From the NCBI RefSeq assembly GCF_048403405.1, contig NZ_CP183129.1: DNA of 64,000 bases. One strand, given 5' to 3'. Shown here one piece after another: positions 24,068-50,686 of this stretch. The DNA is from Escherichia coli (GTDB lineage: Bacteria > Pseudomonadota > Gammaproteobacteria > Enterobacterales > Enterobacteriaceae). Position 1 is the first letter of the stretch. Each line of letters opens with the position of its first letter. Under the pieces are notes generated by a model. The model did not search any database, was not told the DNA's origin, and saw nothing but the letters and a program-made list of their open reading frames with translations. A program made the translations under genes and the position numbers.

Positions 24068-24131
24068 TGGAAACGTTTAATAGCCTGTTTATGGTTTCCC
24101 CGCTGTTGCTGGGAGTTCTCTTTTTGTCGCC

Positions 24132-29448: not shown

Positions 29449-31622
<2,174 letters not shown>

Positions 31623-31890: not shown

Positions 31891-32784
31891 CTATTTCCAG
31901 TTACAAGCAGCTTGAAGCGGTTTTAGCGCGTTTGACAGGCCGTTTAAATTGAAAGTTGCACTTACGGGGCTCTCATTATAAGGCGTTATTTTTGTATACA
32001 TTTTGCTTGAGTTGGCTAGTTTTCGGATGAAATCAATGTCATTACCTTTATAAAAAACAGCCTTTGTATCTGTAGATACTAGCCAGTTTCGCTCAACTGC
32101 TTTCTGTTTATCAAGGCGATAAAGCATGCTGGTTTGTTCAAGGCCTAAATATACATCCCAACTAAGAAATACTTCGGTTTTCTTTTCTCGGCAAGCTATA
32201 AAAAGAGTAGGAGTAACCGCTTCTCCAAATGGAGTTCTGATATAATCATCACTTTCTAACGATAAAATTACATTTTTCGAATCATCAATTGGCGATGTAG
32301 TAATGGATGTGTGCCATTTTCCTACATCTGTGGCTTTCTCTAATTTTGATTCAGCTTGAGCGATTTTATCCTGTGGGAATAGTTTATCGTAGCAGTTTAG
32401 TCTGGCTTCTTTATCATTTTCTGCACGACATTTAGATATCTCAGAAAGATTTGGTTGCTGAGCCTCTGTTGTTACTGGCTTTTCCGTTTTAGATTTTGAG
32501 TTTACAGATGGAGTAAATGTTGGAGAAAAGAAACGATCATAACAAGATAAACGTCTATCATCATCTTTCTCATCAGGGCATTGATCTCTGCTTTCGAATT
32601 TTTCAGCAACTTTCGTTCGAGTCGGTTGTATTGACTTATCGTAACAAGAAAGTCTGTCTTTATTATTTTCTATTGCTCGGCACTGGAGTACTGCATTGAA
32701 GTTCTTATGTTCAGTTGCTGCTTGAACAGGCAGTACACTAATTGATATAAATGATGCACCTATAGAAAAAATTATATTTTTCAT
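31891..32784 (-). CDS. AT-rich secreted protein with three Cys-Tyr-Asp repeat motifs, unknown function
   Basis: 297-aa ORF with signal peptide (MKNIIFSIGASFISISVLPVQA) and three repeats RLSCYDK / RLSCYDR / RLNCYDK; visibly AT-rich. Confidence 0.7.
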   Translation of the reverse strand: MKNIIFSIGASFISISVLPVQAATEHKNFNAVLQCRAIENNKDRLSCYDKSIQPTRTKVAEKFESRDQCPDEKDDDRRLSCYDRFFSPTFTPSVNSKSKTEKPVTTEAQQPNLSEISKCRAENDKEARLNCYDKLFPQDKIAQAESKLEKATDVGKWHTSITTSPIDDSKNVILSLESDDYIRTPFGEAVTPTLFIACREKKTEVFLSWDVYLGLEQTSMLYRLDKQKAVERNWLVSTDTKAVFYKGNDIDFIRKLANSSKMYTKITPYNESPVSATFNLNGLSNALKPLQAACNWK

Positions 32785-32788
32785 TTTA

Positions 32789-33121
32789 TTATCCCTTTGG
32801 TTTAGTAAGAAATACTAAAATTCCGATAATGATATCGCCAATAACCCATAAGCTTCCAATGGTAATTAAACCTAAGCCTGTACCAATAACTGCACCGGCT
32901 TTTTCGGCATCGGATGTGGCATTATTTATTATTTCACTAGTGCCTCCTAGTCCAACTAAAAGCGTATAGATCATAAAAATATTAAATAATATAAAAACCC
33001 ACTTAATGATCCGTCCAAAAAATGAACGCTTAAGTTTTTGCAGTTGTTTACCACAAGCAGGGCAATACAATGCTGAATCGCTCACCTCTTTCTGGCATTC
33101 AGGACATTTGATTAATGCCAT
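32789..33121 (-). CDS. Zinc-ribbon membrane protein, unknown function
   Basis: 110-aa ORF with N-terminal CPEC-x12-CPAC zinc ribbon and two hydrophobic helices; 4 nt upstream of the repeat-protein gene, forming an operon. Confidence 0.65.
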   Translation of the reverse strand: MALIKCPECQKEVSDSALYCPACGKQLQKLKRSFFGRIIKWVFILFNIFMIYTLLVGLGGTSEIINNATSDAEKAGAVIGTGLGLITIGSLWVIGDIIIGILVFLTKPKG

Positions 33122-33383
33122 GTAATCCGCCTCCTTTGGATTAATACGAGTTGATATTTGTTACAAAACATTTTGATTTTATCAGATTTATTTTTATTGA
33201 TAAGTGTCAATTGATTAGCTGGTATAGAGTGAGGCATATAGAAGGGCTGGTCTGTATCAGTATGTGATGCAAAAATCCCACAGTTTCATGGAATTTTTGC
33301 ATTTAGAGCTGTGAGATAGGGTGCCTTATCGACCTTACCCTGGCAACCGATTGACGGGGGATTACTCCCCCGTCGCGGTTTCC

Positions 33384-33524
33384 TTACTGCTTACACTGTA
33401 AGAACGCCGCAAACTCCGCTCCCCAGAAGCTCATCCGTATTTCACACAGCGAACCGTGCAGCATCCAGATGATGAGGATTACCGTCACGCAGAACGTGAT
33501 GGCCGTAAGCGATTTTTGCGACAT
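33384..33524 (-). CDS. Hok/Gef-family type I toxin-like small membrane protein
   Basis: 46-aa ORF MSQKSLTAITFCVTVILIIWMLHGSLCEIRMSFWGAEFAAFLQCKQ with AAGGAG 7 nt upstream; carries the Hok signature SLCEIR-6 residues-E-x-AAF after a TM helix. Confidence 0.6.
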   Translation of the reverse strand: MSQKSLTAITFCVTVILIIWMLHGSLCEIRMSFWGAEFAAFLQCKQ

Positions 33525-33714
33525 AGCGCTTGCTCCTTTTTCGGGGAGGCGCTAACCTATCACTTGCTTAGGGTAGACGGTTAGGGCCTCGGTTAAACAA
33601 AAGTGTTTTCCGGGGCCTTTCCACATCCGGCCATCGGGTATTCCCTCCGACCATCAGCCGAAAGGCACCCGCGCGTAATCTATCGCTTTTTTGTTACTCC
33701 GGCAATTCTGCCTG

Positions 33715-33975
33715 TTAATTCTGAGGTAAAGGCAAACTCATCTGATTGTTTCCCCTGTGTGAAGCTGGCAGCTCATGCCACGGGATACCTTCTGAAGAGT
33801 GAACGCCGGAGGCGTGTTTTGATGTGAATTTATGGAAGGCTTCCAGTGTTGAGAAGCATACGCCGCATTCCAGATTGTTACACTGGTAATACTTTTGCCG
33901 CACGGTGTTTGAATCATTTTCCGGACGACTGGTGCGGATACGGGCAGATGCGCCACAAAGCGGACAACGGAACAT
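33715..33975 (-). CDS. ogr: Ogr/Delta-family zinc-finger late transcription activator
   Basis: N-terminus MFRCPLCGASARIRTSR with a second Cys pair (CNNLECGVC), as in P2 Ogr. Confidence 0.85.
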   Translation of the reverse strand: MFRCPLCGASARIRTSRPENDSNTVRQKYYQCNNLECGVCFSTLEAFHKFTSKHASGVHSSEGIPWHELPASHRGNNQMSLPLPQN

Positions 33976-34017
33976 AGCGACCTCCCTTAACGTGGTGCTG
34001 CCGCTATTCTAAGTTGC

Positions 34018-35127
34018 TCACTCTGTTTCCGCTATCCATTCCGGGATTTTTGCCTCAAGCTCAAGCTGCGTGGTAAAGCCGCTGTTATCAATAGTGTGCT
34101 CGGCTTTTGCAATGATCCAGTCCTGATTATCAATCTCGCTTTTAAATCCTGTTACCGTACCATGCATTTCGGGGTAGAGTTCTGCACGTCCACGCGCCAG
34201 CGTGATGGAGAATGATGCGGCTCCGCGTTGTAGTTGCTGCCACTTTGCCGCCGCTGCGCGTCTTGCTGCCTGTTCGTTCTGATAGGTCTTGCGTAACACA
34301 AACACATTGCCTTCCGCGCCTTCCATATAATCACCTTCACGGCTGCTGCTTTTCTCCTTTTGGGGTTTTGGTGGTTTGCGGCGTTTCACGCTGACTTTTT
34401 TCTTTTCCCCGTAATTAAGATCAAGCCAGTAGGCGCGTACCCCCGTATACGCCTCGCGGTCAGCAATACGGAACTGATGGCGATCGCCGCTGCTGCGTGT
34501 AATGGCGAACGAGGGCAACGGCTGGCCCTGTGCGTTCACGCCACCACCTGGCATGATGAATAACAGATTGCCGCTTTTTACCGTGGTGATTGCGCCCAGC
34601 ATTTCCGCCATGCGCGTAAGGAAGGACATGTCGCTTTCTTCGGTCTGGTCGGCGTGGTCGATTTCGATATCCATCAGCATTTCGCTGATTTGTGGTTTCA
34701 GACCATACCGATGAGCGATGGCGGATACCACACGCTCAACGGTCACATCATGCCAGGACACCTCACGTTTAACGTTAAATTCATCCCGAAAATCTGCGCT
34801 TCTGGCTGAAACAGTCAGCCTGTCCGGCGGTCCTTCGTGAGCGATTTCATCAACAATGTAAGTGCCTTTTTCTGTCAGCGGTTCTCCTTTCCAGCCAATG
34901 AGAACCGTCAGGCGCGCGCCCCGTGGCGGTAGCTGCAACTGACCATCCGCATCATCCAGCGTGATGGTGAGCTGGTCCGCCTCAAATCCCCGGTTGTCGG
35001 TCAGTGACAGGCTCATCAGGCGCTCTGCCACGCCTGACAGCGTTTTACCCTCCGCGAGAATATCAAAATCCGGCATTTTCACGGGGTCTGTGCCCTGACT
35101 GAGCAATTGCATGGTGGTGTCGGTCAT
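34018..35127 (-). CDS. D: Phage tail protein D (late control gene D family)
   Basis: ATG at 35127 preceded by GGGAGGGAA; about 370 aa, gpD-like; the track ORF is extended 44 codons upstream. Confidence 0.8.
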   Translation of the reverse strand: MTDTTMQLLSQGTDPVKMPDFDILAEGKTLSGVAERLMSLSLTDNRGFEADQLTITLDDADGQLQLPPRGARLTVLIGWKGEPLTEKGTYIVDEIAHEGPPDRLTVSARSADFRDEFNVKREVSWHDVTVERVVSAIAHRYGLKPQISEMLMDIEIDHADQTEESDMSFLTRMAEMLGAITTVKSGNLLFIMPGGGVNAQGQPLPSFAITRSSGDRHQFRIADREAYTGVRAYWLDLNYGEKKKVSVKRRKPPKPQKEKSSSREGDYMEGAEGNVFVLRKTYQNEQAARRAAAAKWQQLQRGAASFSITLARGRAELYPEMHGTVTGFKSEIDNQDWIIAKAEHTIDNSGFTTQLELEAKIPEWIAETE

Positions 35128-35284
35128 CTGTTCCCTCCCTGTGCGGCATGGTCGCATGTGCGTGCGGAGGGGGTTACTGCTTTTTGTTGTCGCCGGGTCG
35201 GGAGAACGGCGCAGGGGTGAGATTACGCGCGTGGTGGGTGATGATTGTTGCCGAATCATTTAACGGATACAAGGGGCTGAAGCT

Positions 35285-36469
35285 ATGAGTGAAACTCGTT
35301 TTCATGGTGCCCGTGTTACGGAAAATACCGACCTGGTAACAGCGATTAACGATGTTGATTCCAGCGTTATCGGTATCGTGGCAACGGCGGATGATGCGGA
35401 CGCGAAGCTGTTCCCGCTGAATAAGCCCACACTGCTGACCCGCGTCAATGACGTGCTGGGAAAATGCGGGACAACGGGGACGCTTTATCGTGCGCTTAAG
35501 GCCATCGCAGACCAGGTGAGCACAAAGGTGATCGTCGTTCGCGTGGCTGAACACAAAGAAGAAGACGGAAAGACGCAGGATCAACTGGTTATCGGTGGTT
35601 CTGAGGATGACGGCAGCTATACGGGGATGTATGCGCTGCTTGTTGCAGAGCAGGATGAAAGCATCGGATACCGTCCGCGTATTCTGGCCGCGCCGGAGCT
35701 GGACACGGAGGCTGTAACAAAATCCCTGTGCGTGATTGCAGGTAAACTGCGCGCGTTTGTGTATGCCTCATGTCACGGCTGTAACACGATGGCTGAGGCG
35801 ATTACCTACCGCCAGAAATTCAACGAACGTGAGGTGATGCTCTTATGGCCGGACTTCATCGCCTACAACCCGAAAAGTGGCAAAAACGAAACGTTCCCCG
35901 CGCCTGCCTATGCGTGCGGCCTTCGTGCGTACATTGACCATGAGCAGGGCTGGCACAAATCGCTGTCCAACGTTCCGGTTAAAAATGTGCTGGGAATGTC
36001 CAGGCATGTGTTCTGGTCGTTGCAGGCCGAAGACAGCGATGCCAACAGCCTCAACAACAAAGAAATCACGACCATTATTCGTCGCAACGGGTTCCGCTTC
36101 TGGGGCAACCGCACACCGGAAACGAACGCCTACATCTTTGAGGTGTATACCCGAACCGCACAGGTGCTGGCTGATTCAATTGCGGAAGCGCAGTTTGAAA
36201 CCATCGACAGTCCACTGACACCTGCGAACGTGAAGGATGTTATCAGCGCCATCAGGGCAAAACTGGATTCGCTGGTTACTGCCGGGAAACTGATTGGTGT
36301 GGAGTGCTGGTATGACGTGGTGGATAACGGCACCACGAATTTACGTCAGGGACGTGTGCGTATTCGCTACAAATATACGCCTGTTCCCCCGCTGGAAGAC
36401 ATGGAGCTTTACCAGACGTTTACTGATGAATTCTTTGGTCCCGCATTTGCGGTGCTGGGAGGTGCCTGA
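35285..36469 (+). CDS. FI: Contractile tail sheath protein FI
   Basis: 394-aa product of P2 FI size; followed by tube, E/E', tape measure and U in P2 order. Confidence 0.85.
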   Translation: MSETRFHGARVTENTDLVTAINDVDSSVIGIVATADDADAKLFPLNKPTLLTRVNDVLGKCGTTGTLYRALKAIADQVSTKVIVVRVAEHKEEDGKTQDQLVIGGSEDDGSYTGMYALLVAEQDESIGYRPRILAAPELDTEAVTKSLCVIAGKLRAFVYASCHGCNTMAEAITYRQKFNEREVMLLWPDFIAYNPKSGKNETFPAPAYACGLRAYIDHEQGWHKSLSNVPVKNVLGMSRHVFWSLQAEDSDANSLNNKEITTIIRRNGFRFWGNRTPETNAYIFEVYTRTAQVLADSIAEAQFETIDSPLTPANVKDVISAIRAKLDSLVTAGKLIGVECWYDVVDNGTTNLRQGRVRIRYKYTPVPPLEDMELYQTFTDEFFGPAFAVLGGA

Positions 36470-36981
36470 TGGCTGTACCAAAACATCTTCGCTTTTTTAC
36501 GTTGTTTGTGGATGGTGAAAACGAAGTGGGTAAAGTGACATCCGTCACGCCGCCCAAACTGACGCGCAAAACCGACAGCTATCGTGGTGGTGGCATGATG
36601 GGGGCGGTAAGTATTGATCTCGGTCTGGACGACTCCGCGCTTGATGCGAGTTTTGTCATGGGGGGAGCTGTTCGTGCGCTGTTCCTTAAATATGGCGGCA
36701 CGATTGACGGCACGCTGCTGCGTTTTGCGGGTGAATACTACACCGATGCAGAAAGCGATCTGTATGAAATCGAGATGCGCGGGCGTGTGACGGAAATTGA
36801 TATGGGGGAAGCCAAACAGGGCGAAGCCACATCACACACTTACGCTGTCAAAAACACCTACTACAAGCTGAGCGTTAACGATCGCCCGCTGTGGGAAATC
36901 GACCTGTTGAACCACATCTACCGGAAGGACGGCAAGGACATTGTGCCTGACCGTATCCGTTCCGCGCTTGGGCTTGGCTGA
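36469..36981 (+). CDS. FII: Tail tube protein FII
   Basis: 170-aa product; start overlaps the FI stop (TGATG). Confidence 0.85.
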   Translation: MAVPKHLRFFTLFVDGENEVGKVTSVTPPKLTRKTDSYRGGGMMGAVSIDLGLDDSALDASFVMGGAVRALFLKYGGTIDGTLLRFAGEYYTDAESDLYEIEMRGRVTEIDMGEAKQGEATSHTYAVKNTYYKLSVNDRPLWEIDLLNHIYRKDGKDIVPDRIRSALGLG

Positions 36982-37036
36982 TAAGTAATATGCAGGCGGC
37001 GCAGTGCGTCGCCTCTGACTGAAAAGGAGACAACTG

Positions 37037-37411
37037 ATGAAAGACATCGATACTGAAACCCGGAATAACACCGTGGCGGATGATGTGACGGCAGGTGAGG
37101 ATATGGCTGTCGAACGTGGCGTAAAACTGACCCGACCAATTGAGCGTGGTGGCGAAAAAATCACGTATGTGGAGATCACCGGGGCTATTGAGCAGGCTGG
37201 ATCCCTGCGTGGTCTGTCGCTGTCTGATGTGCTGAATCTGAAAGCGGATACCATGTTTACGCTGTTGCCTCGCGTGACCTCGCCACGACTGGATGAAGTG
37301 ATGATTAAAAAAATGTCGTCACGCGATTTTATTCAGTTGTGCGCTGTGGCTGTAAATTTTATGAGCGAGCCAGACTCTGGCGCGAAGAGCGTGCAGGAGA
37401 CGGCAGCGTAA
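37037..37411 (+). CDS. E: Tail assembly chaperone E
   Basis: 124-aa ORF with AAAGGAG upstream; an overlapping -1 frame ORF follows, the E/E' arrangement of P2-type tail chaperones. Confidence 0.75.
   Translation: MKDIDTETRNNTVADDVTAGEDMAVERGVKLTRPIERGGEKITYVEITGAIEQAGSLRGLSLSDVLNLKADTMFTLLPRVTSPRLDEVMIKKMSSRDFIQLCAVAVNFMSEPDSGAKSVQETAA
37307..37313 (+). promoter_or_regulatory. Candidate -1 programmed frameshift site (A7 run) for E+E'
   Basis: AAA AAA A in the E frame. The -1 frame has a TAA at 37306-37308 and is open from 37309 to 37575, so slippage on Lys codons would fuse E (to ...VMIKK) to the E' extension. Confidence 0.5.
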
Positions 37412-37575
37412 TCACCCTGGTGTGCTTTGAGCACATCGAAGATCTGGTGGCGGATATTGCCGCCATTTTTAACTGGTCGCCCGCCGAAATCTTCATGATG
37501 ACGCCCGGCGAAGTGGTTAGCTGGCGCGAGCGGGCGGCACTTCGCAGCGGGAATGCAGATAATGAAGACTCTTGA
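37309..37575 (+). CDS. E' extension (-1 frame) of the tail chaperone, expressed only by frameshifting
   Basis: Open -1 frame with no own start or RBS context; ends at a TGA overlapping the start of T. Confidence 0.55.
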   Translation, partial: KNVVTRFYSVVRCGCKFYERARLWREERAGDGSVITLVCFEHIEDLVADIAAIFNWSPAEIFMMTPGEVVSWRERAALRSGNADNEDS

Positions 37576-40369
37576 TATCCGGGTCGCTTTCAGCGCCGTT
37601 GACAGGCTGACCCGGCCTGCCGAAAACGCCCGCCGCCTGATGGGGCAGTTTGGTGACTCCATCCAGCGAACGCAGGGGGCGATCAAAAATCTCGAGCGTC
37701 AGGCGCGTTCATTTGAGCGCGCCCGTGACGCTGTCAGTAAAGCGGATGCTGGCATCGTGAAAGCACGACGCCAGCTTAACGCCCTTAATCAGTTACAACG
37801 CACGGGTACAGTGCTCAGCGAAAAACAACAAAAGCTGATGCAGCAGTTAAGCACCCGGCTTGAACGCCTGAATGAATCGCGCACACGGGAAATTCAGAAA
37901 ATGCGGGAGCTTGGCGGAGAGCTGAAACGCCACGGCATTTCCCTGACAGGCAGCGATAACACCATCCAGCAGGCCATCAGACGCACCGAACAGTACAACA
38001 ACCAGCTTGAACGCGAACGGCAGGCGCTTGCGCGTGTAACGCGGGCGCGTGAGCGGTATTCGCGCGCGCAGGAAACAGCGGGAAAACTGAAAACAGGTGG
38101 TGCGCTGGCAATTGGTGCGGCAGCGGCGGGCGGCTATGCTGCCGGGCGTTTTTTGCAGCCTGCGATCGGGTTCGGCAAAGAGATGTCCCGCGTTCAGGCA
38201 CTGACGCGAATCGACCAGAACAGCCCGCAGTTTAAGGCGCTGCGTGAGCAGGCGTTAAAACTTGGCTCTGAAACGCAGTTCACCGCAGGCGATGCCGCCA
38301 GTGGACAGGCATTTCTTGCAATGGCTGGCTTCACTCCGCAGGCCATTCAGGCTGCGCTTCCCGGCGTGCTGAGCATGGCAACGGCTGGCGGTATGGATCT
38401 CGGCGAGACGGCAGATATTGGCTCAAATATCCTGACGCAGTTCGGCCTTTCTGCTGACCAGATGGACCGGGTCGGTGACACACTCACCGCAGCGTTTACC
38501 CGTACCAACACTGACCTTCGCGCACTGGGCGAAACCATGAAATATGCAGGTCCGGTGGCGGGTAAGCTGGGAATATCGCTGGAGCAGGCCGCAGCGATGG
38601 CTGGCGTGCTGGCGAATATGGGCATCAGAGGGAGTGATGCCGGGACGGCAATGCGTGCCAGCCTGGCTCGTCTGGCATCACCGCCAAAGGCGGCGGCAGA
38701 AGCTCTGAAAGAGCTGGGCGTGTCCGTCTCGGATGCCGGGGGCAAAATGCGCCCGATGGAGGATGTGCTGGCCGACCTTTATAAAGCCACCCGTAAATAC
38801 GGGGAAGTTGACCGGGTATCGTTCTTTAAGGACATTGCCGGAGAAGAGGCTTTCACATCGTTTATGGCGCTCGTTGATGCAGCGGGTGACGGTTCCTTAC
38901 CCAAACTGAGAAAAGAACTTGAAGGCGCGCGCGGTGAGGCTGAACGCACAGCAAAGGTTATGGCCAACAACCTTGACGGCGATCTGAAATCACTCGGCAG
39001 TGCATGGGAAGGGTTGCGCATCCGCATTGCAGATCTGATTGACGGTCCGCTGCGTTCTGTCACGCAGTGGCTCACGCGGGTGGTCTCAAAAGTGACGGCA
39101 CTGGCGCAGGCCCATCCGGCACTGACGCGCCAGTTACTGATAGCGGGAGGTGCACTGCTGGCGACAACAGCAACGGTTGGTTCGTTGTCTCTGGTTATTG
39201 GGGTGCTTCACGGGAAGCTGGCTACGTTACGTCTCGGTTTTTCTCTCCTGACCGGATCAATGAATGCTGTCAGGGGCCTGCCAGCACTATGGGGAATGGT
39301 GACGGGTTCCGTTTCTTTACTGGGAGGCGCTATCGGGGCGCTGATCAGTCCGGTTGGTCTTATCGTGGCTGCGCTTGCCGGAGCTGCCGTTCTTATCTGG
39401 AAATACTGGGATCCCATCAGGGCATTTTTTGCCGGGGTGTTCAGCGGGATTATGGAAAGGCTGACCCCGTTGCGCGAAACCTTTGAACGGTTTGGTCCTG
39501 TTTTTGACGCAATCGGAAGCGGGATCAGCCAGGTGTTTAACTGGTTTAAATCGCTGCTGTCACCGATGGAGTCCAGCAAGGAAACGCTGGATAAATGTAC
39601 CAGTGCTGGCGAGATATTCGGTAACGTTCTTGGCGGTGCGTTACAGCTTGTTCTGACACCTGCAAAAATGCTACTGGATACGCTGGCGTGGATACTTGAA
39701 AAACTTGGCGTCCTTCCGGATGAAGCGGAAAAGGCGCGCAAGAAAATCGAAGACGCACAGCGTGCGGCCATTCTTCAGGACAAGGTTGCCTTGCTTCAGG
39801 GGGACCTTGCGAAAATCAATCCGCCGAAGCCTGTGGAAAATGGCAATGGCACCGGAGGTGATAAACCCAAAGACAACAAACCGCTCACAGACAGCAATAC
39901 CGGGACGCTACGCAGACTCAGCAAAATTGCTGATAACACAGGTAAGCTGGTTGATGAGACGAAAAAACGCATTGGCCCTGGCGATATTGTCTTTAAGAAC
40001 CTGCCCCGCGCACTTGCTGTTCGTGGGGAGTGGCAGGAGCGGAAGATTGCGCAGGTCAGTAAGCCTGCCCCCGCAATTAATATCACACCCGTAGTCCCGG
40101 CTCCGCTGCCTCCGGCGCTGGTCCCTGTTGTTGCGGCCAGCTCCCGCCCGGTGGCGGAGGCCATACGATCGCCAGTGGCATCAGTTCCTGCAGCTTCCCG
40201 TAATCGGGAGCCTGCTGTCTCCAGATTTGGCGGTGAAATTCATGTTCATCTGCATAACGTTGTTACGCAGAATCCCCGCGAACTGGCGAAACTGGTCGGT
40301 GAAATGGTCAGGGCAGAGATGGAACGGCGCGCCCGTGCCGGACGTGGCAGTTTTTACGATAAAGATTGA
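37553..40369 (+). CDS. T: Tail tape measure protein T
   Basis: 938-aa product with coiled-coil N-terminal half and Gly/Ala-rich hydrophobic central segments; the start could instead be the ATG at 37562. Confidence 0.85.
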   Translation: MQIMKTLDIRVAFSAVDRLTRPAENARRLMGQFGDSIQRTQGAIKNLERQARSFERARDAVSKADAGIVKARRQLNALNQLQRTGTVLSEKQQKLMQQLSTRLERLNESRTREIQKMRELGGELKRHGISLTGSDNTIQQAIRRTEQYNNQLERERQALARVTRARERYSRAQETAGKLKTGGALAIGAAAAGGYAAGRFLQPAIGFGKEMSRVQALTRIDQNSPQFKALREQALKLGSETQFTAGDAASGQAFLAMAGFTPQAIQAALPGVLSMATAGGMDLGETADIGSNILTQFGLSADQMDRVGDTLTAAFTRTNTDLRALGETMKYAGPVAGKLGISLEQAAAMAGVLANMGIRGSDAGTAMRASLARLASPPKAAAEALKELGVSVSDAGGKMRPMEDVLADLYKATRKYGEVDRVSFFKDIAGEEAFTSFMALVDAAGDGSLPKLRKELEGARGEAERTAKVMANNLDGDLKSLGSAWEGLRIRIADLIDGPLRSVTQWLTRVVSKVTALAQAHPALTRQLLIAGGALLATTATVGSLSLVIGVLHGKLATLRLGFSLLTGSMNAVRGLPALWGMVTGSVSLLGGAIGALISPVGLIVAALAGAAVLIWKYWDPIRAFFAGVFSGIMERLTPLRETFERFGPVFDAIGSGISQVFNWFKSLLSPMESSKETLDKCTSAGEIFGNVLGGALQLVLTPAKMLLDTLAWILEKLGVLPDEAEKARKKIEDAQRAAILQDKVALLQGDLAKINPPKPVENGNGTGGDKPKDNKPLTDSNTGTLRRLSKIADNTGKLVDETKKRIGPGDIVFKNLPRALAVRGEWQERKIAQVSKPAPAINITPVVPAPLPPALVPVVAASSRPVAEAIRSPVASVPAASRNREPAVSRFGGEIHVHLHNVVTQNPRELAKLVGEMVRAEMERRARAGRGSFYDKD

Positions 40370-40375
40370 GGAGTC

Positions 40376-40870
40376 ATGGTCATGATGATGATCTACGGCA
40401 TGTTTGTTTTTGAGCTGCGCACACTGCCGCATCAGCAGTTACAGCAAAACAAAAGCTGGCGGCATGTGAAAAATGAACGCGTTAACCGTTCAGCAAGCTG
40501 GCAGTATATAGGTGCAGGTGATGATCGCATTGTGCTTTCCGGCGTGCTTTATCCTGAAATTACAGGTGGCGAAGTGTCGCTTTCGTTGCTGACCACGCAG
40601 GCATATACAGGACGCCCCTGGCCTCTGATTGATGGTGTCGGGCAGATTTACGGCATGTATGTGCTGACTGAAACGAATACGACCCGTTCCGAGTTTGATC
40701 GCTACGGTAAGGCGAAAAAGATAGAATTTTCACTGACCCTTGAACGCTGTGATGAGGATTTGCGGGAGCGCCTGCAATCCTCATCATTCAGCGATATGCT
40801 GTCCGGCTTCAAAGATAAGGTGACATCATCTCTTAACAGCGCGGCCAGTTCAGTTAAAGGGCTGTTCTGA
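40376..40870 (+). CDS. U: Tail protein U
   Basis: 164-aa product (MVMMMIYGMFVFELRTLPHQQLQ...), gpU-like. Confidence 0.8.
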   Translation: MVMMMIYGMFVFELRTLPHQQLQQNKSWRHVKNERVNRSASWQYIGAGDDRIVLSGVLYPEITGGEVSLSLLTTQAYTGRPWPLIDGVGQIYGMYVLTETNTTRSEFDRYGKAKKIEFSLTLERCDEDLRERLQSSSFSDMLSGFKDKVTSSLNSAASSVKGLF

Positions 40871-40883
40871 TTTAACACAAAAA

Positions 40884-40916
40884 CCGCTAATGGTCAGATT
40901 AGCGGTTATTTTGTTT
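40884..40916. terminator. Terminator hairpin between convergent U and invertase genes
   Basis: CCGCTAAT-ggtcag-ATTAGCGG followed by TTATTTTGTTT on the plus strand, with a T-run also on the minus-strand side; overlaps the invertase stop. Confidence 0.65.
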
Positions 40917-41493
40917 CCTGACTCTTCTCTATTGTTCCGATTGATTCTCCTGCGGGGTGGTAACGATAAATCGTCGATATACCAATGCCGTAAATTATTG
41001 CCAGTTGTTTTCTGTCGTGCCCGTTTTTGATCAGCCTTGCTATTTGCTCATGCTGTTCTTTTGTCAGCTTCGGTCGACGTCCGCCTGTGCGCCCCCGTGC
41101 GCGTGCTGCCGCCAGTCCGGCCAGTGTACGTTCAACAATTAATTCACGTTCCATTTCAGCCAGGGCACCCATCACGTGGAAGAAAAAACGCCCCATTGGA
41201 GAAGATGTATCTATGCTGTCGGTCAGACTGCGAAAATTAATTCCTCGCTCCCGTAGTTCCCCGACGAGAGAAATCAGATGTTTCATGCTTCGCCCGAGGC
41301 GATCCAGTTTCCAGACAACCAGCGTGTCACCTTTTTGAAGGCGCTTTAAAGCGCGTTTTAATCCCGGTCGGTCTGTCTTTGTCCCGCTTAATTTATCTTC
41401 AAATATTTGTTCACATCCTGCACAAACAAGAGCGTTTCGTTGCAGGTCTGTATTCTGGTCATTTGTTGATACCCTTACATAGCCAATCAGCAC
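40906..41493 (-). CDS. pin: Serine DNA invertase (Hin/Gin/Cin/Pin family)
   Basis: GTG at 41493 gives MLIGYVRVSTNDQNTDLQRNAL... with the catalytic Ser in GYVRVST and a C-terminal HTH; the track ORF starts at TTG 41511. Confidence 0.9.
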   Translation of the reverse strand: MLIGYVRVSTNDQNTDLQRNALVCAGCEQIFEDKLSGTKTDRPGLKRALKRLQKGDTLVVWKLDRLGRSMKHLISLVGELRERGINFRSLTDSIDTSSPMGRFFFHVMGALAEMERELIVERTLAGLAAARARGRTGGRRPKLTKEQHEQIARLIKNGHDRKQLAIIYGIGISTIYRYHPAGESIGTIEKSQETK

Positions 41494-41547
41494 GCTGAAT
41501 CTCCCGTCCAAAAGCGCAAATCATGCCATGCAGGCCGGAAACGGCCA

Positions 41548-41575
41548 TTATCTAAAACCTCGGTTTACAGGAAAC
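41548..41575. other. gix/pix-type recombination site (left)
   Basis: TTATCTAAAACCTCGGTTTACAGGAAAC, differing at one base (position 6, T vs C) from the Mu gix sequence TTATCCAAAACCTCGGTTTACAGGAAAC as I recall it. Confidence 0.75.
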
Positions 41576-42581
41576 GGTAAACAAGGCTGGTAACGCCGTC
41601 CAAAAGACAGGCGATATCTTGTCCGGTGGGCTTACTTTTGAAAACGACTCAATCCTTGCCTGGATTCGGAATACTGACTGGGCAAAGATTGGTTTTAAAA
41701 ATGATGCCGACAGCGATACTGATTCATACATGTGGTTTGAAACAGGCGACAACGGCAATGAATATTTCAAATGGAGAAGCAAACAAAGCACCACAACAAA
41801 AGACCTGATGAATCTTAAATGGGATGCTTTGTCTGTTCTTGTTAAAGCCCTTTTCAGCAGTGAAGTAAAAATATCGACAGTCAATGCACTGAGGATATTT
41901 AATTCATCTTTTGGTGCTATTTTTCGCCGTTCTGAAGAATGCCTGCATATCATCCCGACACGAGAGAATGAGGGAGAAAATGGTGATATAGGGCCACTAC
42001 GCCCCTTTACGCTTAATCTCAGAACTGGTCGGATAAGCATGGGGCATGGTCTTGATGTTACAGGGGATATATTTGCAAACCGTTTTGCAATTAACAGTAG
42101 TACCGGCATGTGGATTCATATGCGTGACCAGAATGTTATTTTGGGACGCAATGCGGTATCCACCGATGGTGCACAGGCATTACTTCGTCAGGACCATGCT
42201 GATCGCAAATTTATGATTGGTGGGCTGGGAAATAAGCAATTTGGCATCTACATGATTAATAACTCAAGGACAGCTAATGGCACCGATGGTCAGGCGTACA
42301 TGGATAATAACGGGAACTGGCTTTGCGGTTCGCAAGTTATTCCCGGCAACTATGGCAATTTTGATTCCAGATATGTGAAAGATGTTCGACTTGGTTCACA
42401 GCAATATTATGGAGTGAACAACTGGCAAACATGGAATTTCCAGTGCCCGTCAGGTCATGTATTGTCTGGTATTAATGTTCAGGATACAGGGTCCAACTCT
42501 GCCGATAATATAGCGGGCGTTTATTACAGACCCGTTCAAAAGTATATAAATGGCACCTGGTATAATATAGCGAGCGTTTAA
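41576..42581 (+). CDS. Alternative tail-fiber C-terminal segment (Sv'-like), silent in this orientation
   Basis: Frame continues in phase through the left site ([14 protein letters not shown]...) and has a TAA inside the site, so there is no own start; ends [12 protein letters not shown] like the active fiber end. Confidence 0.7.
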
Positions 42582-42582
42582 T

Positions 42583-43110
42583 ATGATGCACTTAAAGAAC
42601 ATAAAAGCGGGTAATGCTAAAACACTGGAACAGTATGAGTTAACAAAGAAGCACGGAGTCATCTGGCTTTACTCTGAGGACGAAAAAAACTGGTATGAGG
42701 AAGTGAAAAACTTTCAGCCAGACACCATAAAGATTGTTTACGATGCAAATAATATTATTGTCGCCATCACTAAAGATGCCTCCACGCTTAACCCTGAAGG
42801 TTTTAGCGTCGTTGAGGTTCCAGATATTACAGCCAACCGCCGCGCTGATGATTCAGGAAAGTGGATGTTTAAGGATGGAGCTGTAGTTAAACGGATTTAT
42901 ACGGCAGACGAACAGCAACAACAGGCCGAATCACAAAAGGCCGCATTGCTTTCCGAAGCTGAATCAGTCATCCAGCCGCTGGAACGCGCTGTCAGGCTGA
43001 ATATGGCAACAGACGAGGAACGCACACGACTGGAAGCATGGGAACGCTACAGTGTTCTGGTCAGCCGTGTGGATACGGCAAATCCTGAATGGCCACAAAA
43101 GCCTGAATAA
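42583..43110 (+). CDS. Tail fiber assembly protein, alternative copy
   Basis: 175-aa product [23 protein letters not shown]..., paralogous to the 43139-43672 gene. Confidence 0.8.
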
Positions 43111-43115
43111 AAATT

Positions 43116-43135
43116 AAGGCCCGCTATCGGGCCTT
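43116..43135. terminator. Hairpin between the convergent tail fiber assembly genes
   Basis: AAGGCCCG-ctat-CGGGCCTT. Confidence 0.5.
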
Positions 43136-43138
43136 GTC

Positions 43139-43672
43139 TCATTCAGGTTGTTCGGGAAATGTTACTGGCAGGCTGGAGGTGTCTGTAGATTCGACTTTCT
43201 GCGCATAGAGCATCCACTCGGTTAATTTTGGTTTATTCTCGTCGGAAATGATGCCCAGCCGTAGCTGTGAGTCCCATAGCTGGGTTTTATCCCTGACAAG
43301 TTGCAACAGGCTTTGCTTTTCATTTTCCGCCTGCTGCCTCTGCTCTTCCTCGGTATAAGTTCGCTTTACCACTACGCCATCTTTGAACATCCATTTACCC
43401 GAAATGTCAGCACGGCGATTTGCTGTAATATCAGGTAATTCAACGACGCTTGCGCCTTCCGGATTAATTGCTGAAACATCCTTTTCAATACAAATAATAA
43501 CGCCGTTATGGTCATAGACCATTTTTAAAGTGTCTGGCTGGAAATTCTTTTGTTCCTCATACCAGTTTTTTCCATCCTCTGAATAAAGCCATTTGATGTT
43601 AAATTGTTTCGTTAGCTGGTATTGCTCTTTTGTTTTAGGGTTGCCAGCAGTAATGTTTTTTAAGTGCATCAT
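43139..43672 (-). CDS. Tail fiber assembly protein (G-like), active orientation
   Basis: 177-aa product [23 protein letters not shown]..., immediately downstream of the fiber gene. Confidence 0.85.
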
Positions 43673-43674
43673 CG

Positions 43675-45777
43675 TTAAATACTCCCCGCGTTATACCACG
43701 TCCCATTAATGCAATACTGAATTGGCCTTGCCTGAGTTGTATCAATTAATTCATCACGGTTTCCGTTAACTGAACCCGTAACGACATAACCTGACCTGTC
43801 AGACCAGCCGGGACCATTCCATGTCTGAACAGATGACAGACCGCCAAGGCGAATACCTGTAATAAACCTTGAGTTACATTCTGCCTGCGTGTATGCACCA
43901 ACATCTCCCGCTGAGGGTTTGCGGGTCGTGGTGTAAAACTCTGACCAGTCAGCTTCAAAGCCATAACCATCACGCGCTGAACGATAAAAAATGCCGCCGT
44001 TCCTGTAATTCACGCGGAACTGTACAGCAGGGCAACTCCCCGCATTCATATTGAAATGAAGAATTAACGTTGATGCGCCGGTGATTCTGGCGCAATAAAC
44101 TCCGCTGTTCCAGTTCCAGCCAACAGCTTTATCATTTCCGACAGTGCTTCCTGTTTGCCCTAAAGCAAATGCAGGTTGTTGATTTTTCGTGTTGTAGTCT
44201 CGTCGCCAGCCAGGAGCGTAAGCATCACCATGATTGATATAAGTGAATTGAGCGTTAGTAATTCCGCCACCGCTGGACGTGCTCGGCGTGGTAACGCGTA
44301 TGGTCATTGCGCCGCGAGTGCCAATAACTTCCACCACAGCACCTGCAAGACAAATATTTCCGCAACCTGTATCTGTAATGACCTTATTATTTGCATAAGC
44401 CCATGAGCCTTTGCACATCCAGTAAGGATGGTTAAATGCTCCCTGACTCTCCAGCCACGAAATAAATTGCGCGGTTGTCCAGACCTGACTATCGCCACCA
44501 ATATTCAGCCATGCGCTATATGCGCGGCAGGCACCAATATTTTTGGTGAAGGTATCTTTTCCTGGAATATCTGCGCCGTTCTGGTTTTTCTGTAATGCGC
44601 CAGAAGCCTGATTTACCGTTTCCTGTAAACCGAGGTATTCGATAACGGCAGCAACGGTCGATTTCGCAAGAATATCCCGCCCGACTTTTGTCAGGGTTGC
44701 CAGGCTGGCGACATCATTCCCCGTAAAATACGGAAACCTGTCTGCCGCAGTAGCAAGCCCGGCCAGCGCCGTCAGGGTGGCATCTTTCGGTTGCTTACCC
44801 GCAAGCGCTTTAGTCATGGTGGTCGCAAAATTCGGGTCGTTTCCCAGCGCCGCCGCTAACTCGTTCAACGTATTCAGTGCGTCAGGCGACGAGTCTACAA
44901 GTGCGGCAATCGCGGCCATCACATAAGCCGTGCTTGCGATCTGAGTATTATTAGTCCCTTTTGGCGCAGTTGGCGTTGTTGGCGTTCCGGTCAGTGCAGG
45001 ACTATTTAAGGGCGCTTTCTTGTTCGTTTCATCCATTACCGCCTTAACCGCTTTTGGCGTCGCAGCCAGCGTTTCAGATGTGCTGTTGGTGGCGCTACTG
45101 AGCTGAACTATCCCTTTTCGCGCAGTGGTAGCGTCCTGTGCGGTGTATTTGCCATTAGCCAGGTCATATGCCGCCTTAACAGCCTTTGGCGTTGCCGCAA
45201 GCGTTTCAGACGTGCTGTTAGTGGCGCTGCTAAGTTGAACAAAGCCTTTTGCGGTCAGCGAGGCGTCCGGGTGACGTCGTGAGTGTTCATGCTCTTTCAG
45301 TTTGTCATCCACGTAATCCACTGTGGCCATCACCATGGTGTTATCCACGGTAAGCGCCACGGTGGCAGTGCTGGATACGGTCAGAATGGTGCGAAATGTT
45401 TGTGCACGTCCTGACCCTTCGGCAACGGCTGGCTTGTAACTTTCGGCAGTATTGCCTACTGCGATTAAATCGCCGTGCTCATCAAACACACCAATTTCCC
45501 GGATCCAGAATCCGCCCGTTTCTGGAGGAATAACCAGCTCCGCAATAATGCGGTTCTGATGTGTTGCGTCCAGTATGACGCGATTAACAGTGTGTCGCCA
45601 CACCTCATGCACCAGACGGGTCTGCTTACTGTCTGGTGTGGGCAACGTGCCGCCACCGTCGCCCACGGCCATATGAGTCAGGCGGACAGGCTTACCATCT
45701 GGCGCGGCTGCCTGAGCTAATTTTTTTGCACCCGTATCGGTGATAACGGTTTTAAATTTTCGTGTTGTGGTACTCAT
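43675..45777 (-). CDS. H: Tail fiber protein H, with its C-terminal ~320 codons inside the invertible segment
   Basis: 700-aa ORF; reading frame passes through the right recombination site at residues [11 protein letters not shown]. Confidence 0.85.
44618..44645. other. gix/pix-type recombination site (right), inside the tail fiber gene
   Basis: GTTTCCTGTAAACCGAGGTATTCGATAA, the reverse complement of the left site with two mismatches. Confidence 0.75.
45041..45268. repeat. Tandem direct repeat (two copies of ~96 bp, 132-bp period) inside the tail fiber gene
   Basis: Encodes [23 protein letters not shown] twice, 44 aa apart. Confidence 0.8.
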
Positions 45778-48131: not shown

Positions 48132-48772
48132 CGTACAGCCTCCGCAATCCGGCCCAGCACCGTGTTATAAATCAGGCGCTCATCTGCCTGGCTGATACCC
48201 AGCAGCTCACGTACCGGGTAATCGGTGAAAATGCCCGGCGCAACCTGATCGCGCTCACCGAACTGATGAACGCGGGCAATACGTGCGGCCACGCCGCTGT
48301 AACCCACCGTCACACCGGAAGCATCTGCACGGGCTTTCAGGTAGCGGGCGGTGCGCAGTTTTACGAACATGGGGACGCGCTTTGTGCTGTCCTGGTTGAT
48401 GCGCCGGGTGCGTATTTCCAGAAAACGGTCGATGTCATCCCGGTAAAACGTGCGGATATTGTTTTTATCCTCATCCCACCCGGTAATGGTTCGCCCGTAT
48501 TTCCCCGTGTCGTGATGCCAGTTTTTCAGCGTGCGTGCTTCGTTATTCCAGATAAAGCGAATGCGTTCCTGTATCCGGGTTACGCGGCGTCTGCGTGGTG
48601 TCCACGCGGTCCCGTCCGGCGCTTTCTGTGACCGGATACGCGCCTGCTGGGCGCGGCGTAAATCCTGTGCCAGCTTTCTGGCGATGTTATTGATGGCCTG
48701 CTGATTCAGGCTGTCGCGGATGGCCTCAAAGGTTTCATCCACGCGTGTGAATGCCTTATCCATCGCTTTCAC
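48128..48772 (-). CDS. S: Virion morphogenesis/tail completion protein S
   Basis: 214-aa product in P2 S position. Confidence 0.7.
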   Translation of the reverse strand: MKAMDKAFTRVDETFEAIRDSLNQQAINNIARKLAQDLRRAQQARIRSQKAPDGTAWTPRRRRVTRIQERIRFIWNNEARTLKNWHHDTGKYGRTITGWDEDKNNIRTFYRDDIDRFLEIRTRRINQDSTKRVPMFVKLRTARYLKARADASGVTVGYSGVAARIARVHQFGERDQVAPGIFTDYPVRELLGISQADERLIYNTVLGRIAEAVR

Positions 48773-49223
48773 CCCACGTCACATCCTGGAATACATGCGA
48801 CCAGTCGCCTTCGGAAGATGGCAGGCGGGGTTTTGGCTCCGGCAGGTGTTCTGCCTGCGGTGTGCCCTGACTGCTGCGCGTGATGCGAACGCGTTCCCGC
48901 AGGGGGAGCGTAAACAGGAGATCGGCGCTGTCATCGTCATTGATAACGGCGGAGAATTTGATGTCCTGATTACGCTCCGGATTGAGCAACAACTGTGGCT
49001 GATTTTCGGATAACCACGCCAGCAGCGGCAGCGTGAGGTCGTCCAGCTCCCCGGCGTAATCCATGACAAACATCACCATCTGATAGCGGTAAACAAACGA
49101 GGGCGTTTCTCCGGTCGTTTCAATGTTGCCGCTCTCCACGAAAATGGTGAATTTTTCCGGGTTGGCCTGACACCATCGGCATGAACGGGTCATGGCTTCA
49201 CGCAGGGAATCAGTTTTCAGCAT
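48756..49223 (-). CDS. R: Tail completion protein R
   Basis: 155-aa product, P2 gpR size. Confidence 0.75.
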   Translation of the reverse strand: MLKTDSLREAMTRSCRWCQANPEKFTIFVESGNIETTGETPSFVYRYQMVMFVMDYAGELDDLTLPLLAWLSENQPQLLLNPERNQDIKFSAVINDDDSADLLFTLPLRERVRITRSSQGTPQAEHLPEPKPRLPSSEGDWSHVFQDVTWGESDG

Positions 49224-49500
49224 GGTTGTTGTCCTCGTTGTTCAGTCGTTGCAGCCTGCGCTGTTCCAGTAATTCAATGGCCCGTTTATCCGCGTTACAG
49301 GTTTCCAGTGCATCCAGAAGGCGGTCGCCCCATATACCGAGATTTCCCCATGTGGGAGTATCAGGGAAGGGGGGAGGCGTTACCGGTATGGTCAGCGTCT
49401 GCGGTATAAGCCGGACTGACGGCGCTGGCAGTGGCGCGTTCTGCGTGCCTGCGCAGCCTGTCAGTAAAACGAGCGTCAGGCAAAGCGTGGGCGCATTCAT
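49210..49500 (-). CDS. lysC: Outer-membrane lipoprotein o-spanin (LysC/Rz1-like)
   Basis: 96-aa product with lipobox LTGCAG and Pro-rich body, overlapping the 3' part of the i-spanin gene in another frame. Confidence 0.7.
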   Translation of the reverse strand: MNAPTLCLTLVLLTGCAGTQNAPLPAPSVRLIPQTLTIPVTPPPFPDTPTWGNLGIWGDRLLDALETCNADKRAIELLEQRRLQRLNNEDNNHAEN

Positions 49501-49768
49501 CTTTTGCAATATCGTTGCGTAGCTGTTCACGTCTTGCCTCTCCGTCCTGATTGCGTTGCTGATTTTCCACGCGGAGTTGCGCCAGCACCTGCTGCATATC
49601 CTGTACCCCGGCGCTGATGATATTCAGGGTGTCGGCGGTACGTTTCAGGGTGCTGGCCTGCGCTTCGTTTCTGGCGTTCTCCCGGCCCAGCGACCATGAC
49701 AGACGCATGGATGTTCCCCATGCGGCAATCAGAAGGAAAGCGACACCCAGCGTGGGCCAGAGCTTCAT
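49361..49768 (-). CDS. lysB: Inner-membrane i-spanin (LysB/Rz-like)
   Basis: Start at 49768 gives 135 aa with an N-terminal TM helix (MKLWPTLGVAFLLIAAWG) and coiled-coil body. Confidence 0.7.
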   Translation of the reverse strand: MKLWPTLGVAFLLIAAWGTSMRLSWSLGRENARNEAQASTLKRTADTLNIISAGVQDMQQVLAQLRVENQQRNQDGEARREQLRNDIAKDECAHALPDARFTDRLRRHAERATASAVSPAYTADADHTGNASPLP

Positions 49769-50157
49769 GCGGGATAGGCTCCGTGTGGTAACTGAAAATG
49801 CGGTCCGTCTTTCAGGGTCTTCCAGTCGCCGCCCCATTCCACCGGAATATTCAGCTCCCGGCTGGCCTGTCTGAATGCTGCTGCGATTTTTTCGTACAGC
49901 GGCCATTCCCATGACACCTGGCTGCCGATATAAGCCACAACATCCACGGCATGTCCCGTAAGGTGGCGGCTGTTCATGGTCTGGCTCTTACCTGTGGCCA
50001 CAAGTTGCTTCTGGCGGTAACGGCTGCGCAACCCTTCGGTGATACCAAAATCCACTTCCGAAATTTCCAGTGCCCGTCGGGTCACTTTCACCAGATCAGG
50101 ATTTACACCCTGCAAATTCTTTTCGCTCCGGCTGCTGAATTTAAATGTGTTGCTCAT
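49765..50157 (-). CDS. Endolysin, peptidase-M15-type (L-Ala-D-Glu peptidase-like)
   Basis: 130-aa product with zinc-peptidase motifs SRHLTGHAVDV and DGPHFQL, located between holin and spanins. Confidence 0.7.
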   Translation of the reverse strand: MSNTFKFSSRSEKNLQGVNPDLVKVTRRALEISEVDFGITEGLRSRYRQKQLVATGKSQTMNSRHLTGHAVDVVAYIGSQVSWEWPLYEKIAAAFRQASRELNIPVEWGGDWKTLKDGPHFQLPHGAYPA

Positions 50158-50477
50158 TCGTCCTTCTCCTTCACCCTGCGATTAAAGGCCGCAATAACCT
50201 TGTCGCGTGCTTTCTCTGCGCCCATAAAACCGATTGATGCGCCGATAAACGTCACGGCATCTTCAGGAAACCCGAAGAAGCGCAACGACCCGGCCACGGC
50301 CATGGCAAGAACGCCGCACGCCAGCGATCCCGTTACGGTCTGAACCAGTGTTCGTCCGTCATAAAGACTCATCAGCGCGGAAATGCTGACCGCCGCGCCT
50401 ACTGCATACACCGTTGGCAGGTGGTCAAAGAGCCACGCAATAACCTGCTCTGTGATCCCTGTTTGAATGGTGCTCAC
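50154..50477 (-). CDS. Holin
   Basis: GTG at 50477 after GGGGGAG gives about 107 aa with two hydrophobic helices and a charged C-terminus; the track ORF is longer upstream. Confidence 0.6.
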   Translation of the reverse strand: MSTIQTGITEQVIAWLFDHLPTVYAVGAAVSISALMSLYDGRTLVQTVTGSLACGVLAMAVAGSLRFFGFPEDAVTFIGASIGFMGAEKARDKVIAAFNRRVKEKDE

Positions 50478-50479
50478 TG

Positions 50480-50686
50480 CTACTCCCCCCACAACTGAAT
50501 CATTTCTCGTTTCTTCTTCTCCGGCTCCGGCATCTCCACGTCCTGCCCGGCGTCCAGAAATACCTGCTGACAGAGTCCGGGGTTGGCATCCAGCACCTTT
50601 TCGGTGGCGCCCTGCGTCGTGCCGTAGTACCGGAAACAGAGCGAATCCACGGTGTCGCCTTCCAGTGCCTTCACTTTCATCAGCAC
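50480..50686 (-). CDS. X: Tail protein X
   Basis: 68-aa product in P2 X position and size. Confidence 0.7.
   Translation of the reverse strand: MLMKVKALEGDTVDSLCFRYYGTTQGATEKVLDANPGLCQQVFLDAGQDVEMPEPEKKKREMIQLWGE

Follow-up and report, generated by a model that had tools for sequence, protein, structure and literature searches.

A predicted M15-type zinc peptidase as the endolysin of a P88-like Escherichia coli prophage, encoded in a mosaic lysis slot

INTRODUCTION

What kind of enzyme attacks the murein for a P2-like prophage in which the lysis enzyme of P2 has no counterpart, and how did its gene come to occupy its place? The locus examined here lies in a 64,000-nucleotide stretch of Escherichia coli DNA (the window) and encodes a 130-aa protein between a holin gene and two spanin genes. 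The original prediction, made from the sequence, held this protein to be an M15-type zinc peptidase serving as endolysin, described the corresponding gene K of P2 as lysozyme-type, and took the difference as a sign of modular exchange of the lysis cassette. These claims were followed up with profile and structure database searches, a comparison with P2, and a scan of viral contigs. The reading that we prefer, with a probability of roughly 9 in 10, is that the gene encodes the endolysin of a P88-like prophage, an M15 peptidase released by the holin, that the spanins complete lysis, and that the slot holding these genes is mosaic.

RESULTS

A lysis cassette in a P88-like prophage

Host chromosome (fadJ ... 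mepA ... fabB, flk) fills the window to ~31.7 kb, and a prophage extends from there past the window end. Positions 40000 to 64000 are 95 to 96% identical, across 74 to 84% of the length, to Escherichia phages 500465-2, Chuche, P884B11, and P88 (Xuanwuvirus, Peduoviridae), and the lysis cassette DNA is 98 to 99.5% identical to that of the same phages. We conclude that the gene belongs to an apparently intact P88-like (Xuanwuvirus, Peduoviridae) E. coli prophage, the right end of which lies beyond the window.

The endolysin gene, predicted to encode an L-Ala-D-Glu endopeptidase, occupies positions 49765 to 50157 of the minus strand. It is an intact open reading frame (ORF) with an ATG start and a 130-aa translation (MSNTFKFSSRSEKNLQGVNPDLVKVTRRALEISEVDFGITEGLRSRYRQKQLVATGKSQTMNSRHLTGHAVDVVAYIGSQVSWEWPLYEKIAAAFRQASRELNIPVEWGGDWKTLKDGPHFQLPHGAYPA), and at the nucleotide level it is fully identical (100%) to a gene annotated in RefSeq (WP_000072327.1). 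An antisense ORF (49951 to 50343, plus strand) was judged to be an artefact. Both the ORF list and the profiles of the neighboring genes agree with the original description of a 130-aa gene, placed between holin and spanins, that carries the motifs SRHLTGHAVDV and DGPHFQL.

The neighbors form a conventional set on the same strand, in the order gpX, holin, endolysin, i-spanin, o-spanin, and gpR. The holin (50154 to 50477, minus strand) is a 107-aa protein of the lambda-S family (PF05106, Phage_holin_3_1, E = 1e-19; PHROG 126, E = 2e-35) with a GTG start that follows a GGGGGGAG Shine-Dalgarno sequence. Its hydrophobic segments span approximately aa 12 to 38 and 43 to 71, and its C-terminal tail is charged; a lambda-type dual start is absent from the window holin, which has a single start. 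The i-spanin (49361 to 49768, minus strand) is a 135-aa, Rz/LysB-like protein with an N-terminal transmembrane domain, recognized by PHROG 214 (E = 1e-40), a weak DUF2570 match, and its hydrophobic N terminus; the same 408-nt gene is annotated in P88 and in RefSeq. A 183-aa version of the i-spanin, extended upstream to a start at 49912, was rejected as an artefact, since homologs and ATGA coupling favor the start at 49768. The o-spanin (49210 to 49530, minus strand), a LysC/Rz1-like lipoprotein with the lipobox LLTGC (PF23793, LysC, E = 1e-12; PHROGs 3001 and 456), overlaps the 3' end of the i-spanin gene, and its start is uncertain among a GTG at 49530, an ATG at 49500, and 49479, the RefSeq choice. 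The lysis slot is bounded by two conserved flanks, the gpX tail protein on the left (50480 to 50686, minus strand; PF05489, E = 9e-20; 47% identical to P2 gpX) and the gpR tail completion protein on the right (48756 to 49223, minus strand; PF06891, E = 5e-40; 38% identical to P2 gpR).

The holin stop and the endolysin ATG overlap in an ATGA sequence, as do the endolysin stop and the i-spanin ATG. These overlaps suggest that translation of the endolysin gene is coupled with that of the holin and i-spanin genes.

Family, active-site residues, and predicted specificity

The endolysin matched Pfam PF13539 (Peptidase_M15_4) with 46 bits (E = 8e-12; profile positions 3 to 70 of 70), above the gathering cut-off of 25 bits, and matched PHROG 465 ("endolysin") at E = 5e-77. 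In a PDB sequence search, 23ri (labeled "Peptidase M15C domain"), ChiX (5OPZ), and LysECD7 (8Q2G) were found at E values of about 1e-46 to 1e-48 and 62 to 63% identity, and the alignments to these three crystal structures are gapless over residues 5 to 129/130. More distant matches included the T5 endolysin (2MXZ, E = 9e-23), Ply500, and LysB4; all PDB matches at E < 1e-5 bore either an L-alanyl-D-glutamate peptidase annotation or the M15C label. The PHROG and PDB E values, along with the complete identity to the RefSeq gene, place the predicted endolysin assignment far beyond chance. Gapless identity to three crystal structures further argues that the protein adopts the LAS fold. No assignment to a lysozyme or glycosidase family was seen in the profile searches of the endolysin.

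Alignment to ChiX identified the residues of a putative active site. The SRHLTGHAVDV motif (aa 63 to 73; positions 49939 to 49971, minus strand) supplies H65 and D72, and the DGPHFQL motif (aa 117 to 123; positions 49789 to 49809, minus strand) supplies H120; these three predicted Zn ligands form the triad H-x6-D...H and correspond to ChiX H68, D75, and H123. The predicted catalytic residue D117, three positions before the last His, corresponds to ChiX D120, and R44 corresponds to ChiX R47. All five residues (H65, D72, H120, D117, and R44) are invariant across 64 distinct homologs, a set comprising 61 sequences from viral contigs, ChiX, 8Q2G, and the window protein. In ChiX, crystallography revealed a LAS-type Zn site made of H68, D75, and H123; D120 is essential, with the D120A variant inactive, and R47 was implicated by analogy to VanX (PMC5778951). 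Muropeptide analysis of sacculi treated with ChiX showed GlcNAc-MurNAc-L-Ala, the product of an L-Ala-D-Glu endopeptidase (PMC5778951).

These results support placing the endolysin among the MEROPS M15/LAS-type Zn metallopeptidases, with a Zn2+ dependence expected from ChiX, LysECD7, and the T5 enzyme. The Pfam score, the gapless identity to ChiX, LysECD7, and 23ri, and the conserved residues thus sustain the M15-type zinc peptidase of the original prediction, including the Pfam assignment proposed as a check. By analogy with the ChiX muropeptides, the bond cut is predicted to be L-Ala-D-isoGlu. The Pfam label "D-Ala-D-Ala carboxypeptidase" is likely the name of the family and not the specificity of the endolysin, because ChiX yields GlcNAc-MurNAc-L-Ala and the endolysin keeps the ChiX active-site residues.

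The endolysin is a basic protein (14.7 kDa, pI 9.5). Neither a signal peptide nor a SAR segment was found in it; the maximal Kyte-Doolittle mean over 19 aa was 0.54, and there was no hydrophobic segment. Since it has no such segment, the endolysin would depend on the holin, as we infer also from ChiX, LysECD7, and T5, and it fits the canonical holin-dependent soluble endolysin of Gram-negative phage. A virion-associated lysin was rejected, the protein being too small, wrongly positioned, and without a structural domain.

Comparison with the lysis genes of P2

The proteins of P2 (33 in all) were compared with the window by tblastn. Every morphogenetic protein was matched at 26 to 62% identity, with gpG at 89%, and the search with P2 Y, K, LysA, LysB, and LysC returned nothing from the window. 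P2 gpK (AAD03276.1) itself had no Pfam match at E ≤ 0.01. It is a lambda-R homolog, as indicated by a match to lambda lysozyme (1AM7/3D3D) at E of about 4e-44 in the PDB sequence search and by membership in PHROG 90. Although lambda R has a lysozyme-like fold, it acts as a lytic transglycosylase rather than as a hydrolytic lysozyme, so that the term "lysozyme-type" applied earlier to P2 K is loosely right: the relationship to lambda lysozyme stands, and the name fits the reaction less well. The gpK protein and the window endolysin are unrelated (BLASTP E = 0.5) and belong to different PHROGs (90 versus 465), in line with the difference that had been supposed.

The holins likewise come from different families, PF05106/PHROG 126 in the window versus PF04550/PHROG 175 in P2, and the window has no lysA counterpart. 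The o-spanins are distant homologs (28% identity between the window protein and P2 LysC, E = 2e-4; both PF23793 and PHROG 456), and the i-spanins are linked only by reciprocal weak cross-matches between PHROGs 214 and 89. Relative to P2, the unit replaced is therefore the holin and the endolysin, with or without lysA, between conserved gpX and gpR.

Exchange of the endolysin gene within and beyond the genus

Citrobacter phage Shae_phiSM, also a Xuanwuvirus, has in the M15 slot a gene for a 181-aa GH108 plus PG_binding_3 endolysin (WOZ57135.1), and a prophage of E. coli KFu014 has a GH108 gene in that slot as well. A three-way DNA alignment delimited the segment replaced in both by the GH108 plus PG_binding_3 gene as positions 49745 to 50180 (minus strand). 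Sliding identity between the window and Shae_phiSM was 96.3% in the holin flank and 96.4% in the spanin flank, versus 33% in the middle, which equals the random level. The junctions map to ~50180, no more than ~8 codons before the holin gene ends, and to ~49745, within ~8 codons of the i-spanin start. The M15/GH108 exchange may have run in either direction.

A scan of viral contigs with the M15 alignment returned 80 loci. Xuanwuvirus-type loci made up 23 of the 80, and those retaining flanks all have the same neighbors at ≥91% identity. In approximately 12 loci from other P2-like lineages, gpX and gpR enclose an M15 gene (57 to 76% identity); a related holin (PHROG 126, 58 to 60% identity) accompanies it in three of them, with different spanins, and the others have unrelated holins. 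The remaining loci are without any P2-type flanks. The nearest relatives outside the genus, 75 to 79% identical, are a Mu-like locus (L029), where the M15 gene follows a Mor-type late activator, and two lambdoid loci (L034 and L038), where it follows a Q-type antiterminator and precedes terS/terL; the holins paired with these relatives belong to PHROG 198, 24402, or 126. In a neighbor-joining tree of the M15 proteins, built without support values, P2-like backgrounds occupy three or more distinct positions, with Mu-like and lambdoid ones between them. A phage database added homologs of 63 to 64% identity in Yersinia phage PY100 and Escherichia phage FL38 (164-kb genome).

Because of the GH108 swap, and because relatives occur in varied phage backgrounds and tree places, the M15 gene is an endolysin module that moves horizontally and is widely distributed, in P2-like, Mu-like, and lambdoid phages as well as in other, unrelated ones. 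Judged from the same comparisons, the gpX-gpR lysis slot appears to be a mosaic hotspot. Modular exchange had been proposed from the difference to P2; that difference holds for holin and endolysin, and the swap of M15 and GH108 genes between 96%-identical flanks extends it into the genus.

Prior annotation and distribution

Of 5426 complete E. coli genomes, 1068 contain the M15 gene, with the RefSeq label "M15 family metallopeptidase," and the entire holin-M15-spanin block is present in at least 1008 genomes. P88 gp31 (YP_009113074.1) was already annotated as "endolysin, Peptidase M15." A literature search on P88, P2-like prophage, and endolysin gave no match; in the P88 paper, "lysin" is only a tree marker, and its family is not discussed. 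The endolysin is thus already known, an ordinary one with existing annotations in the public records of phages and in RefSeq. P88, with a cassette 98% identical to that of the window, forms plaques (PMC5285337), and by this analogy the endolysin would act in lysis in vivo.

DISCUSSION

A model for lysis can be proposed from these assignments. The endolysin gene would be transcribed late, within the capsid/tail operon, and translated in coupling with the upstream holin and downstream i-spanin genes. Having no export signal, the endolysin would build up, folded, in the cytoplasm until the lambda-S-family holin opens the inner membrane at a programmed time and gives it access to the murein. There, Zn2+ held by H65, D72, and H120 would activate a water molecule. 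D117 would serve as the general base and R44 would position the substrate for cleavage of the L-Ala-D-isoGlu bond in the stem peptide. Such cleavage would strip peptides and cross-links off the glycan, after which the i-spanin/o-spanin complex would disrupt the outer membrane.

Two other functions could be considered for the gene. The PF13539 description reads "D-alanyl-D-alanine carboxypeptidase," a label that a BLAST-based annotation of LysECD7 also bore (PMC6466606), and a VanY-like carboxypeptidase that trims stem peptides would not be a true lytic endolysin. We regard this as very unlikely: ChiX, the closest characterized homolog (62%, gapless), releases GlcNAc-MurNAc-L-Ala from sacculi (PMC5778951), the T5, Ply500, and LysECD7 structures were named L-alanyl-D-glutamate peptidases by their depositors, as was LysB4 in a 2026 preprint (bioRxiv 10.64898/2026.04.21.719881), and the position of the gene between holin and spanins also counts against a trimming enzyme. 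Alternatively, the cassette might release proteins without lysis, as Serratia chiWXYZ does, with which it shares its set of components: a holin-3-family holin, an M15 protein (that of the window being 62% identical to ChiX), and two spanins; the single start of the window holin was noted for ChiW too (PMC4259817). To this idea we give almost no credence. A system of the chiWXYZ type would be expected to form a stand-alone, chromosomal, cargo-linked operon, whereas the window cassette lies between gpX and gpR, inside the late morphogenetic operon of a P2-like prophage with homologs of all P2 capsid, packaging, and tail genes. There is no cargo gene near the cassette, and P88, which forms plaques, has one that is 98% identical.

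The history of the slot also admits a simpler account, in which the difference from P2 arose solely because two phage genera diverged vertically long ago, with no modular exchange. The M15 cassette is common to all P88-like genomes, the structural genes themselves are only 26 to 62% identical to those of P2, and the spanins are plausibly divergent homologs of the P2 spanins, all of which such an account would accommodate. M15 and lambda-R-type enzymes have different folds. They belong to different families, between which sequence similarity is undetectable, and so are not relatable by divergence. Replacement of M15 by GH108 within the genus, between 96%-identical flanks, contradicts a vertical-only history, and the closest M15 relatives outside the genus (77 to 79%) are in Mu-like and lambdoid contigs, with P2-like backgrounds at three or more places of the tree. 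Divergence without exchange is therefore highly improbable, and we retain the reading of a P88-like prophage endolysin in a mosaic slot.

The significance of the locus is limited. This common E. coli prophage family has a peptide-cutting M15 lysis enzyme and not the glycan-cutting type of P2 and lambda, and the M15-to-GH108 replacement is a textbook-clean swap of a single-gene module inside one phage genus, with its junctions mapped. What is added here is the exact difference from P2, the mapped swap junctions, and the circulation of the M15 module across phage types. Close homologs, LysECD7 among them, are under development as antibacterials, and the variant described here, found in ~20% of the E. 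coli genomes sequenced, offers a readily available natural sequence. Beyond correct annotation the importance is small, and no new question is opened. Broader readings are speculative, and we hold it unlikely that M15 and GH108 represent a maintained polymorphism, swapped by recombination across conserved holin 3' and spanin 5' junctions and selected by host differences, or, in a related reading, that a P88-type cassette gave rise to the domesticated Serratia chiWXYZ. Under such a polymorphism, M15 may be the form carried by about a thousand E. coli genomes and GH108 that of a minority, and selection may come from modified peptidoglycan or from lysozyme inhibitors in the periplasm, to which a peptidase would not be susceptible.

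Among known systems, EndoT5 (2MXZ/8P3A), the L-alanyl-D-glutamate peptidase of T5, is of the same family and fold as the window endolysin (E = 9e-23), with good alignment over the N-terminal two-thirds. It is more distant, the window endolysin being colinear with the short ChiX/LysECD7 type. Extended loops of EndoT5 bind a regulatory Ca2+, as cited in a preprint (bioRxiv 10.64898/2026.04.21.719881); the window endolysin probably lacks this Ca2+ loop, although its C-terminal alignment to T5 is ambiguous. LysECD7 (8Q2G) and 23ri are closer (62 to 63%, gapless), and LysECD7, like the window endolysin, is a single-domain globular M15 endolysin of ~130 aa. LysECD7 is the endolysin of a Myoviridae coliphage, and its recombinant form is bactericidal (PMC11267749, PMC6466606), but its phage background is different from, and unrelated to, the window prophage.

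ChiX is 62% identical to the window endolysin over its full length without gaps, and the two share the Zn triad, the catalytic Asp, and the Arg. Both proteins lack a signal peptide, and each has a holin-3-family holin and two spanins as partners (PMC4259817). The ChiX cleft is lined by three Trp residues, one of which is missing in LysECD7 (PMC6466606), while in the gapless ChiX alignment the window endolysin keeps all three (W83, W85, and W112). The two differ in setting: ChiX is encoded on the chromosome outside a prophage and serves non-lytic chitinase release, whereas the window endolysin is encoded in a phage late operon. P2 gpK offers the converse comparison, as a small soluble enzyme with the same role in the same slot, after gpX and holin and before spanins and gpR. 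Its sequence is unrelated, it cleaves the glycan where an M15 enzyme cleaves the peptide stem, and P2 has a different holin family and the extra gene lysA.

Within the genus, the GH108 gene of Shae_phiSM and KFu014 occupies exactly the M15 slot of the window, with holin and spanin genes 96% identical; the Shae_phiSM product is an unrelated two-domain muramidase, and its gene is separated from the holin gene by a 54-nt gap, in contrast to the ATGA overlap of the window M15 gene. In Xuanwuvirus prophages, cargo genes and integration site vary between strains. The M15 proteins of phage 503458 and E. coli 2022S01-140 are 100% identical to that of the window. P88 gp31, recorded with WP_000072327.1, is the same gene, with a few nucleotide differences of no substance; over the cassette, the DNA shares 98.1% identity with P88 and 99.5% with phage 500465-2, and the P88-type neighbors are those of the window, in the order gpX-holin-M15-spanins-gpR.

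Lysis cassette holin and relatives of the M15 locus

The holin ORF of the prophage lysis cassette (50154-50477) has one plausible start, a GTG preceded by GGGGGGAG, and holds no lambda-type charged dual-start motif. A homolog of P2 lysA is absent from the cassette, and no antiholin is evident. The missing dual start has been cited as a trait that sets apart the non-lytic Serratia holin ChiW (PMC4259817); yet the holin here has a single start too, and its cassette shares 98% identity with the one in the plaque-forming phage P88.

In some relatives within Xuanwuvirus, a 625-aa moron is inserted between lysC and gpR (comparison locus L017, 4936-6813; also L021 and L026), with DUF1737, SASA sialate-O-acetylesterase and DUF6645 domains and assignment to PHROG 143. 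The window lacks it. In L006, a degraded relative, the N terminus of the gpO scaffold is fused in frame to the complete M15 ORF (3476-4393), apparently because a deletion took out the gpO end together with gpN, M, L, X and the holin gene.

The host mepA gene (penicillin-insensitive murein endopeptidase) was placed at window positions ~23300-24150 by colinearity with comparison locus L086. It is an unrelated chromosomal gene, ~26 kb away from the phage M15 enzyme. Its product and M15 are presumably both members of the LAS superfamily.

Partition module, variable cargo and integration site

Next to replication endonuclease gene A (60453-63320) lie two minus-strand genes. One (59417-60376; StbA_N and ParM_N) encodes an actin-like segregation ATPase, ParM, and the other (59098-59547) a Plasmid_stab_B protein; together they constitute a plasmid-type partition module within an integrated P2-like phage. 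Between the par genes and the portal gene, a variable cargo island (57438-59358) encodes a DUF4760 protein at 57635-58132; its ORF at 58172-59014 (280 aa) has no match in Pfam.

Directly past host flk (30627-31622), the left end of the prophage carries cargo (31891-33975): 31891-32784 encodes a VasI/TagO-like T6SS-associated protein, 32789-33121 a zinc-ribbon protein and 33384-33524 a Hok/Gef toxin, and the gene for the ogr late activator (33715-33975) comes next. E. coli 2022S01-140 contains an otherwise near-identical prophage at another integration site (raiA / pheL), with Com, a DNA methyltransferase and a TM2 protein in place of this left-end cargo and a DUF3800 gene at the position of the 57438-59358 island.

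Gene order and probable tail-fiber switch

In P2, the genes from FI to D and ogr all lie on the same strand. Here (33817-40762), they form two divergent groups, with gpD-ogr on the minus strand and FI-FII-E-T-U on the plus strand.

The region at 40906-45777 is probably an invertible tail-fiber (host-range) switch. A minus-strand serine invertase gene (40906-41511; Resolvase and HTH_7) adjoins a pair of 62-nt inverted repeats (41544-41605 and 44588-44649; 79% complementary). Between the repeats are an alternative fiber C terminus (41619-42581, plus strand), two Caudo_TAP assembly genes in opposite orientations (42583-43110, plus; 43139-43672, minus) and the 3' part of gpH (43675-45777, minus). 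This arrangement resembles the G segment of Mu and the C segment of P1.
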